Shown here: piece by piece, positions 1-12,551 of the stretch | How the letters are laid out: each line of letters starts with the position of its first letter | Numbering within the stretch: position 1 is the first letter of the stretch | Assembly (NCBI GenBank): GCA_048939765.1 | Contig: JBHLPF010000064.1 | Span: forward strand, 1 to 12,551 | Reading direction: 5' to 3' | DNA from: Promethearchaeota archaeon | GTDB taxonomy: Archaea > Asgardarchaeota > Thorarchaeia > Thorarchaeales > Thorarchaeaceae | DNA length: 12,551 bases | Made by a program: the position numbers and the translations under genes | The notes under the pieces: model-generated | What the model was told of the DNA's origin: nothing | Seen by the model: only the letters and a program-made list of their open reading frames with translations | Databases searched by the model: none

Positions 1-67
1 CTCGGTCCGGCGACACTGGTATCTTCCTCGATGTTCCATCTTCCAATGTTGCCTTAAAGTGGATCAA
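1..67 (-). CDS. 5' fragment of a divergent gene running off the left edge; possible ubiquitin-like (beta-grasp) N-terminus
   Basis: Hand translation of the minus strand from TTG at 67 gives MIHFKATLEDGTSRKIPVSPDR, open to the window edge. An alternative GTG at 76 adds MKA, and an in-frame TGA lies at 79-77. An SD-like GAGTGA sits 5 nt upstream of the TTG. Only 22-25 codons are visible. Confidence 0.5.
   Translation of the reverse strand, partial: MIHFKATLEDGTSRKIPVSPDR

Positions 68-12551: not shown

Follow-up and report, generated by a model that had tools for sequence, protein, structure and literature searches.

Asgard archaea attract interest as a place to look for forerunners of eukaryotic signalling and trafficking, and contig JBHLPF010000064.1 of a Promethearchaeota archaeon from the order Thorarchaeales (assembly GCA_048939765.1) raises the question whether a giant surface protein and the Ras-like protein encoded beside it belong to one system reaching from the cell surface into the cytoplasm. 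The window analysed here is this entire contig (12,551 bases; C30 of genome G000, which comprises 3.37 Mb in 108 contigs and is 88.5% complete), and both of its ends are contig ends. It contains two well-defined genes and a small part of a third: (i) a Ras-superfamily gene encoding a candidate pseudoGTPase of 440 residues (266..1588, plus strand), assigned by Pfam, alignments, AlphaFold2 and Foldseek and referred to below as the GTPase gene; (ii) giantD (1698..12551, minus strand), which encodes a single-pass surface protein and is open at its 5' end, with 3617 residues present; and (iii) the first 25 codons of a gene for a leucine-rich-repeat (LRR) protein (1..75, minus strand). The earlier note on this sequence had proposed a receptor module of three adjacent genes, namely a giant adhesin with a tail resembling ubiquitin-associated (UBA) domains, a pseudoGTPase with a Rho insert, and a ubiquitin-like (Ubl) neighbour. 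The giant gene and the Ras-like gene proved to be real, but the supposed Ubl neighbour is the N-terminus of the LRR protein, so that the triad fails. An undescribed surface-to-cytoplasm module is still a live idea, if one built from parts other than those first proposed.

Judged by its sequence, the contig is most likely a fragment of a surface-protein island that is found only in Thorarchaeales. We see about even chances that this island is a lineage-specific surface-protein cassette in which an LRR/pseudoGTPase adaptor in the cytoplasm works on the tails of the giants. In this proposal, the Ras-fold protein, which is without the P-loop lysine and the DxxG motif, would be a scaffold rather than a switch, and together with the LRR protein it would make up an adaptor in the cytoplasm that resembles a ROCO protein split in two and lacking COR. 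The adaptor would act on the cytoplasmic tails of the giants. One possible mode is that two W-acidic motifs in the linker of the Ras-like protein bind three-helix bundles of the tails, by which the surface fibres would be linked to the cell interior. Ubiquitin would have no part in it. The fully specified version, in which a split ROCO-like adaptor docks via the W-acidic motifs as part of an adhesion-receptor-plus-adaptor system that evolved in Thorarchaeales independently of eukaryotes, appears unlikely. Gene order is the only tie by which the GTPase and the LRR protein are connected functionally to the giants.

Gene order and distribution of the locus

In the neighbourhood survey, 87 Thorarchaeales genomes were searched with the GTPase, the giant tail and the LRR protein, and the loci were then fetched and mapped. 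All genomes compared in this work are metagenome bins, which are related and incomplete. The LRR and GTPase genes were adjacent and head to head in all 26 genomes that carry both on one contig. These pairs span five genera (g1, g6, g9, g10 and g12), with identities down to approximately 35%. In three further genomes (G063, G064 and G048) the LRR and GTPase genes each lie at a contig end of their own and face outward, as they do in the window. A giant of approximately 6,000 residues follows the LRR gene on the same strand in g1, g12 and g6, and in g1 and g12 it is succeeded by a further giant, which has approximately 4,000 residues and a four-repeat tail. In these three genera the LRR gene is thus the first gene of an operon of tailed giants.

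On a 103-kb contig of genome G066 (G066:C8) the order is giantB, giantA and LRR on one strand, the divergent GTPase gene on the other, then giantD, giantC and a gene for a DUF4332/HhH protein on the first strand again, and finally a paralog of the GTPase gene that encodes the N-terminal domain only and is divergent from the DUF4332/HhH gene. Genome G000 has this locus in pieces, with giantA and giantB on C75, the window as C30, and the DUF4332 gene and the paralog on C17. On G066:C8 giantC stops and giantD starts within one sequence, ATGA, in which the two codons overlap (L044, approximately 10963-10966), and giantA and giantB overlap likewise, which suggests translational coupling of these giant genes of 12-20 kb. 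The N-domain-only paralog (approximately 160 residues; G000:C17, L079:1152-1628; G066:C8, L078:8276-8770) diverges from the DUF4332/HhH gene (G000:C17, L079:436-1089; G066:C8, L078:7581-8153), which leads the second giant operon consisting of giantC and giantD. This arrangement mirrors that of the LRR and GTPase genes.

All parts of the cassette are confined to the order Thorarchaeales. Searches across the Asgard archaea covered 400 genomes (86 Thorarchaeales and 314 others in the search for ubiquitin, PF00240). The N-terminal domain family of the GTPase occurred in 36 of the 400, every one of them Thorarchaeales, and the membrane-proximal tail domain of the giants, searched for at 1e-6, was found in 57 of the 58 Thorarchaeales genomes that are at least 85% complete versus none of 210 other Asgard genomes. 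The four-repeat tail has the same genus distribution as the LRR/GTPase pair (g1, g6, g9, g10 and g12). Of the 87 Thorarchaeales genomes, 26 had both the GTPase N-domain family and the four-repeat tail, seven the GTPase only, four the tail only, and 50 neither. As the genomes are related and incomplete, these numbers reflect co-inheritance of the locus and are to be read neither as independent co-evolution nor as a statistical test.

The juxtaposition seen in the window itself is young. Strict orthologs of the giantD tail (E <= 1e-60) were present in six genomes, all of genus g1. In a maximum-likelihood tree of 25 tails, the giantD sequences form a clade (support 100/100) whose sister group (94/94) consists of giantB from G066, G000 and G067, and both lie in the g1 clade (100/99), apart from g12. 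By this tree giantD is a within-genus duplicate of giantB, and giantC presumably arose likewise, as judged by synteny. Being a young duplicate confined to these six genomes, giantD has come to lie next to the GTPase gene only recently. The synteny and co-occurrence asked for in the earlier note were thus found in part: the LRR/GTPase pair is kept in five genera and is tied to giants in three of them, whereas the neighbourhood of giantD and the GTPase gene is limited to those six genomes.

The best-surviving alternative to the cassette is that its genes are neighbours without partnership. The LRR/pseudoGTPase pair would then be self-contained and would merely lie in a variable region where giant genes duplicate, insert and vanish. 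We consider this a serious but rather unlikely explanation. It draws on several of the observations that weigh against an adaptor acting on the giants. In g9 the LRR/GTPase pair is present without an adjoining giant. In genomes G057 and G070, which encode GTPases with 86-89% identity to that of the window, giantC and giantD are missing beside the GTPase gene, and the DUF4332 gene and the paralog come directly after it. The recent origin of giantD, in six genomes only, points in the same direction. Further, the tail family is represented in all 17 genera of the order, most of which are without this GTPase; tailed giants thus occur whether or not the pair is present and do not need the GTPase. 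Genome G000 has 35 Ras-family matches and 12 giant-type tails, so that a single adjacency could arise by chance, and conservation is what counts. Even a conserved gene order may be no more than common inheritance, as the genomes are related. In a Rosetta-stone test of five longer LRR open reading frames (ORFs) from the order, the Ras/Roc domain was absent from all of them. Finally, conservation of the NKxD motif in the Ras-like protein suggests that it may still bind nucleotide, which makes "dead" a candidate status only.

A mere neighbourhood accounts less well for other features of the locus. In g1, g12 and g6 the LRR gene, giantA and giantB run in one direction with little space between them, and the GTPase gene is always divergent from the LRR gene. 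A GTPase paralog converges on giantB on contig G044:C28 with only one gene, encoding a hydrolase-like protein of 218 residues, in between. The second giant operon is in turn flanked by an N-domain-only paralog, and the four-repeat tail and the pair share their genus distribution.

The gene for the 218-residue protein comes after GTPase paralogs in genus g12 (L045:11713-12366 on G044:C28; L047:19276-19929 on G046:C6). It gave a sub-threshold match to Abhydrolase_11, in keeping with an alpha/beta-hydrolase-like protein, and in G044 it separates the GTPase paralog from the 3' end of giantB.

The Ras-like protein and its LRR partner

The Ras-like protein matched Pfam Ras (PF00071; 2.9e-13, 50.2 bits versus a cut-off of 21.6) and Roc (2.6e-07, 31.3 bits versus a cut-off of 27). 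Both matches fall in its C-terminal 200 residues, and Pfam otherwise lists only Arf. Foldseek ranked Rho, Rac and Rab chains equally (E approximately 1e-9, target TM score approximately 0.7). More than 120 full-length relatives were found, nearly all labelled Thorarchaeota. The G domain occupies 992..1534 on the plus strand, as delimited by Foldseek and by alignments to Rab9A and ARAC5.

The state of the G motifs was determined from an alignment of 56 relatives and from HMMER alignments to Rab9A and to the plant ROP protein ARAC5. In place of a G1 motif GxxxxGK[S/T], the P-loop reads GEAQVGVKS (1016-1042), with the canonical lysine replaced by valine. The relatives follow the pattern G-E-x-x-V-G-[V/I]-x-S, and all 56 have V (44) or I (12) where the lysine would be. 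The G3 motif DxxG is likewise missing. In switch II (WTFEGSQ, 1133-1159) the aspartate is lost. W-T-F-E-G is the counterpart of W-D-T-A-G in the Rab9A alignment; all 56 relatives have T, S or P in place of the aspartate, and eight of them retain the glycine. A register shift by two residues at G3 would retain D or N but lose the glycine. G4 and G5 are preserved: NKTD is intact in the window (1316-1327), NKxD is found in 54-55 of the 56 relatives, and E and S of the E-T-S motif are invariant. The degenerate motifs make a nucleotide-independent or non-hydrolysing scaffold more likely than a switch.

Directly after NKTDLRD the protein has an acidic insertion at the site of the Rho insert (1328-1375). 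The alignment of this stretch to the Rho-insert region of ARAC5 is free of gaps, and AlphaFold2 modelled the insertion as a low-confidence loop without helix (predicted local distance difference test, pLDDT, approximately 50-57). Of the Rho-insert pseudoGTPase announced in the earlier note, the degenerate G1 and G3 motifs and the position and length of the insertion hold; a helical insert is possible but is not seen in the low-confidence model. "PseudoGTPase with insertion at the Rho-insert site" seems a fair description of the 440-residue protein; the labels "GTPase SAR1 family" and "Rab family GTPase", under which some sources list its relatives, go beyond what the sequence supports.

Four distant members with the same N-terminal domain (P0133, P0135, P0139 and P0154) keep a canonical P-loop, GE[DEV]GVGKS, from which it follows that the loss of the lysine is derived. 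The family of proteins with N-domain and GTPase domain thereby holds both apparently live and apparently dead GTPases, which is of use for comparative biochemistry.

The N-terminal domain (residues 1-107; 266..586, plus strand) is specific to the family. AlphaFold2 predicted four strands followed by three helices (pLDDT approximately 67-82). Searches for a known family or fold gave no Pfam match, no usable match in the ESM Atlas, and no significant PDB profile match, the best being at E 0.077. A profile of the domain retrieved 41 cluster representatives at E <= 0.001 among 1.84 billion proteins. The domain is at the N-terminus in all 28 best matches, and the proteins fall in two sizes, approximately 160 residues or 400-565 residues; all six long ones scanned with Pfam have a Ras/Roc domain. 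The "608-aa GTPase" of G010 was used for the N-domain match only, as this frame runs from one stop to the next and matches an ABC-2 membrane domain as well. Among the basic residues of the domain, R55 and R70 are invariant and K65 is nearly so.

Between N-domain and G domain lies a linker modelled with low confidence (587..991, plus strand; pLDDT < 50 over much of the stretch) in which three motifs stand out: S-I-W-D-D-V-P (770-790), with W171 in 55 of 56 relatives; T-P-T-P-R-T (851-868), with P199 in 56 of 56; and K-F-I-W-D-D (902-922), with W216 and D217 in 56 of 56. Conservation of the W motifs SIWDDVP and KFIWDD, to which the earlier note had drawn attention, is thereby confirmed.

The LRR partner is represented in the window by its start only. 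Bases 75 to 1 of the minus strand encode VKALIHFKATLEDGTSRKIPVSPDR, and 20 of these 25 residues are identical to the start of an ORF of 207 residues located upstream of the GTPase ortholog in G066 (G066:C8:56826-57446; Pfam LRR_8, 3.6e-22). By this match, bases 1..75 are the start of a predicted small cytoplasmic LRR protein of 207 residues. The body of the gene lies outside the contig and is missing from the G000 assembly. The Ubl-like neighbour of the earlier note does not survive this assignment: its plus-strand ORF (3-212) had no Pfam match, in G066 and G057 the same frame contains stops, and the region holds the LRR start instead of a beta-grasp domain. A minus-strand ORF at 148-390 was rejected as a gene as well, having no family match. 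Four independent assemblies break in or near the LRR start or the LRR/GTPase spacer (window bases 1-75; G063:C19/C76; G064:C274/C146; G048:C38/C51), which suggests strain variation or a repeat at this place.

The A+T-rich intergenic region shared by the two divergent genes (76..265) contains a 21-nt element, CATTTCAATATATGGCGCTTC, at 126-146. The element is identical in g1 (G000, G066 and G057) and g12 (G046, and two copies in G028), in contrast to its diverging flanks. The 3.37-Mb genome has a single site for the 15-nt core of the element, even when one mismatch is allowed. The element probably serves the LRR-giant operon as promoter or operator.

This element enters into a second alternative, according to which the N-domain binds DNA, the full-length protein controls the LRR operon, and the N-domain-only paralog controls the DUF4332 operon. 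N-domain genes are indeed divergent from the leader genes of both giant operons, the genome-unique element is kept in the LRR/GTPase spacer across two genera, and the domain has its invariant R55 and R70 and near-invariant K65. The domain has no recognised DNA-binding family or fold, however, by Pfam, the ESM Atlas or PDB profiles. The spacers between the DUF4332 gene and the paralog are without the 21-nt element, which may be a plain promoter. We know of no precedent for a Ras-like output domain on a transcription factor, which also counts against such a regulator; altogether we regard it as improbable.

The giant surface protein and its cytoplasmic tail

The product of giantD comprises at least 3617 residues (minus-strand ORF 1698-12551, 5' end open). 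Its ortholog in G066 has 3,991 residues and starts with MTRSSIAKMLMVIITVLLV, which resembles a signal peptide. The first residue in the window aligns to residue 370 of this ortholog, so that approximately 369 N-terminal residues including the signal peptide are placed beyond the contig end. A lectin-like head (10452..11318, minus strand) consists of a DUF2341 domain (11124-11318; Pfam 0.0011, under the family cut-off) and a Laminin_G_3 domain (10452-10958; Pfam 2.8e-15), both near the N-terminus of the protein.

The head is followed by a stalk rich in glycosylation sequons (2982..10274, minus strand), which was delimited by motif periodicity. The pattern G-x-[YFW]-x-hydrophobic-x-hydrophobic (G-x-Y-x-I-x-I) recurs every 97-110 residues from approximately residue 836 to 3145, which indicates about 24 divergent modules of approximately 100 residues. 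A BLAST self-comparison of the outer part revealed no repeats at E < 1e-3. The motif pattern points to a beta-sandwich fold of the modules. The outer part has 75 N-x-S/T sequons compared to 31.6 expected from composition; the tail has one. A single transmembrane helix (2916..2969, minus strand) is formed by the hydrophobic stretch FGPAFIVALALIGVFW, followed by RRILKVPK, and was modelled as a long helix. Together these features show giantD to be, as predicted from its sequence, a glycosylated type-I surface fibre with a lectin-like head, approximately 24 modules and one membrane helix. It has the head, tandem repeat stalk and cell anchor of giant fibrillar adhesin-like proteins, in the form of a Laminin_G_3 head, modules of approximately 100 residues and a C-terminal membrane helix, and in the G066 ortholog also a signal peptide. 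The giant adhesin-like gene of the earlier note is confirmed in its head, repeat stalk, membrane helix and tail repeats; adhesion itself is putative.

The cytoplasmic tail of giantD extends over 421 residues after the membrane helix and ends in four repeats of approximately 47 residues. An AlphaFold2 model built on an alignment of 25 homologous tails (mean pLDDT 75) consists of a long helix through and past the membrane, a four-helix domain and four three-helix bundles. Along the chain, a basic membrane-proximal segment precedes the four-helix domain, and the bundles follow on acidic linkers. The four-helix domain (tail residues 86-158; 2490..2708, minus strand; pLDDT 84-90) is common to all giant paralogs, with 12 tail matches in G000. 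The four repeats (2256-2396, 2076-2216, 1896-2036 and 1713-1853, within 1713..2396, minus strand) are each predicted to form a three-helix bundle (pLDDT approximately 80-86), and the acidic linkers that join them have low confidence.

The earlier note had taken these repeats for UBA-like units. Their size and predicted architecture are compatible with this view, but Pfam, PDB profiles, Foldseek and VIA-align gave no UBA signal. An hmmscan of the 421-residue tail at E <= 10 listed 21 families, and UBA was not among them. SAP (PF02037) was rejected, as it matched one repeat at E 0.0055 with 16.7 bits versus a cut-off of 23.9. A profile of 56 repeat copies run against all PDB sequences matched designed helical repeat proteins only, via an L-K-R-x-G-x-x-E-D-E-I type motif, and Foldseek returned no match at E < 1. 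VIA-align yielded a best Z of 7.0, to KIX, protein A, paramyxovirus XD and designed bundles, a value that according to the tool's own note (Z <= 7.0) is within the range of common helical arrangements. No UBA chain was in the VIA-align list, an absence that leaves a UBA fold possible. UBA domains carry the motif M-G-F/Y in the loop between helices 1 and 2; in the tail repeats this loop reads R-G-L-P. The repeats are best called generic three-helix bundles, as far as the models go.

In an 80-residue gene of the ThiS family (L011:1846-2085 on G071:C266; Pfam ThiS, 2.3e-07) located just downstream of the GTPase ortholog of G071, a relative from the same genus, a protein with ubiquitin fold does occur next to a relative of the locus. 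It is absent from the window, and its position looks incidental.

The remaining alternative, in which UBA-like repeats bind a neighbouring Ubl and receptors are sorted in a ubiquitin-dependent manner via a Rho-like scaffold, can cite repeats of approximately 45 residues with the size and topology of UBA domains, the insertion at the Rho-insert site and the ThiS-family gene that happens to adjoin the G071 GTPase, but is very hard to credit given that its Ubl is an LRR N-terminus, that its UBA repeats gave no UBA match and have a deviating loop, and that ubiquitin (PF00240) was detected in none of the 86 Thorarchaeales genomes searched, G000 included, versus 289 of 314 other Asgard genomes. This absence makes the ubiquitin-dependent sorting put forward in the earlier note implausible here.

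Comparison with known systems

The literature search returned no paper on the tail of the giants, on the LRR/GTPase pairing or on Asgard pseudoGTPases, and none that combines the terms "pseudoGTPase" and "Asgard". The paper on Thor-Rab makes no mention of LRR, Roco or pseudo-GTPase (PMC10933270). The locus provides a concrete and testable set of proteins. If its parts bind each other as proposed for the cassette, it would to our knowledge be the first known prokaryotic giant surface protein wired to a GTPase-fold adaptor. With parts limited to Thorarchaeales, an order without ubiquitin, the cassette is, whatever its function, a lineage-specific invention and not an ancestor of eukaryotic receptor sorting.

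Eukaryotic pseudoGTPases include the Rnd proteins, RhoH, CENP-M and the pG domains of p190RhoGAP. The Ras-like protein shares with them the Ras fold, degenerate G motifs and conservation of this state throughout the family, and presumably acts as a scaffold like them. It has no specific homology to any of them, and it differs in its pattern of motifs, with G1 and G3 gone and G4 and G5 intact. Its insertion resembles the Rho insert of Rho, Rac, Cdc42 and plant ROP proteins in lying right after NKxDLRD and in its gap-free alignment to ARAC5. In contrast to the helical Rho insert, it is predicted to be an acidic loop, with low model confidence, and the rest of the domain matches Rab9 and Rab22 best; a common origin is not implied.

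ROCO proteins (LRR-Roc-COR), such as LRRK2 and the Roco protein of Chlorobium tepidum, are similar in that LRRs and a Roc-matching Ras-like domain are inherited together. They differ from the pair described here in several respects: (i) the LRRs and the Ras-like domain are on two polypeptides encoded by divergent genes in 26 of 26 genomes with both on one contig, and no fused form was found among five longer LRR ORFs; (ii) COR and kinase are lacking, as the Ras-like protein ends approximately 15 residues after the G domain; (iii) the P-loop lysine is absent; (iv) the GTPase has an N-terminal domain of its own. The tail repeats are like UBA (PF00627) and SAP (PF02037) in being small helical units of approximately 40-47 residues, and are set apart from them by the lack of a UBA match, a SAP score below the cut-off, and structure searches that return generic three-helix bundles.

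Huge proteins with one N-terminal Laminin_G_3 domain are the commonest architecture of huge proteins in archaea, and their function is not understood, according to a survey of such proteins (PMC11573180). These archaeal proteins as well as the bacterial giant adhesins SiiE (PMC6272769) and MpIBP (PMC5550230) resemble giantD in having a head, a long run of tandem repeats and an anchor; the accessible portions of the three papers describe no conserved folded tail of approximately 400 residues after a C-terminal membrane helix as in giantD.

The comparison with integrin beta and cadherins is one of analogy. There is no homology, and an adaptor or signalling function for the giants is a proposal only; these receptors and the Thorarchaeales giants are alike in crossing the membrane once, with a large outer part that is glycosylated and a tail that could serve as a docking platform.

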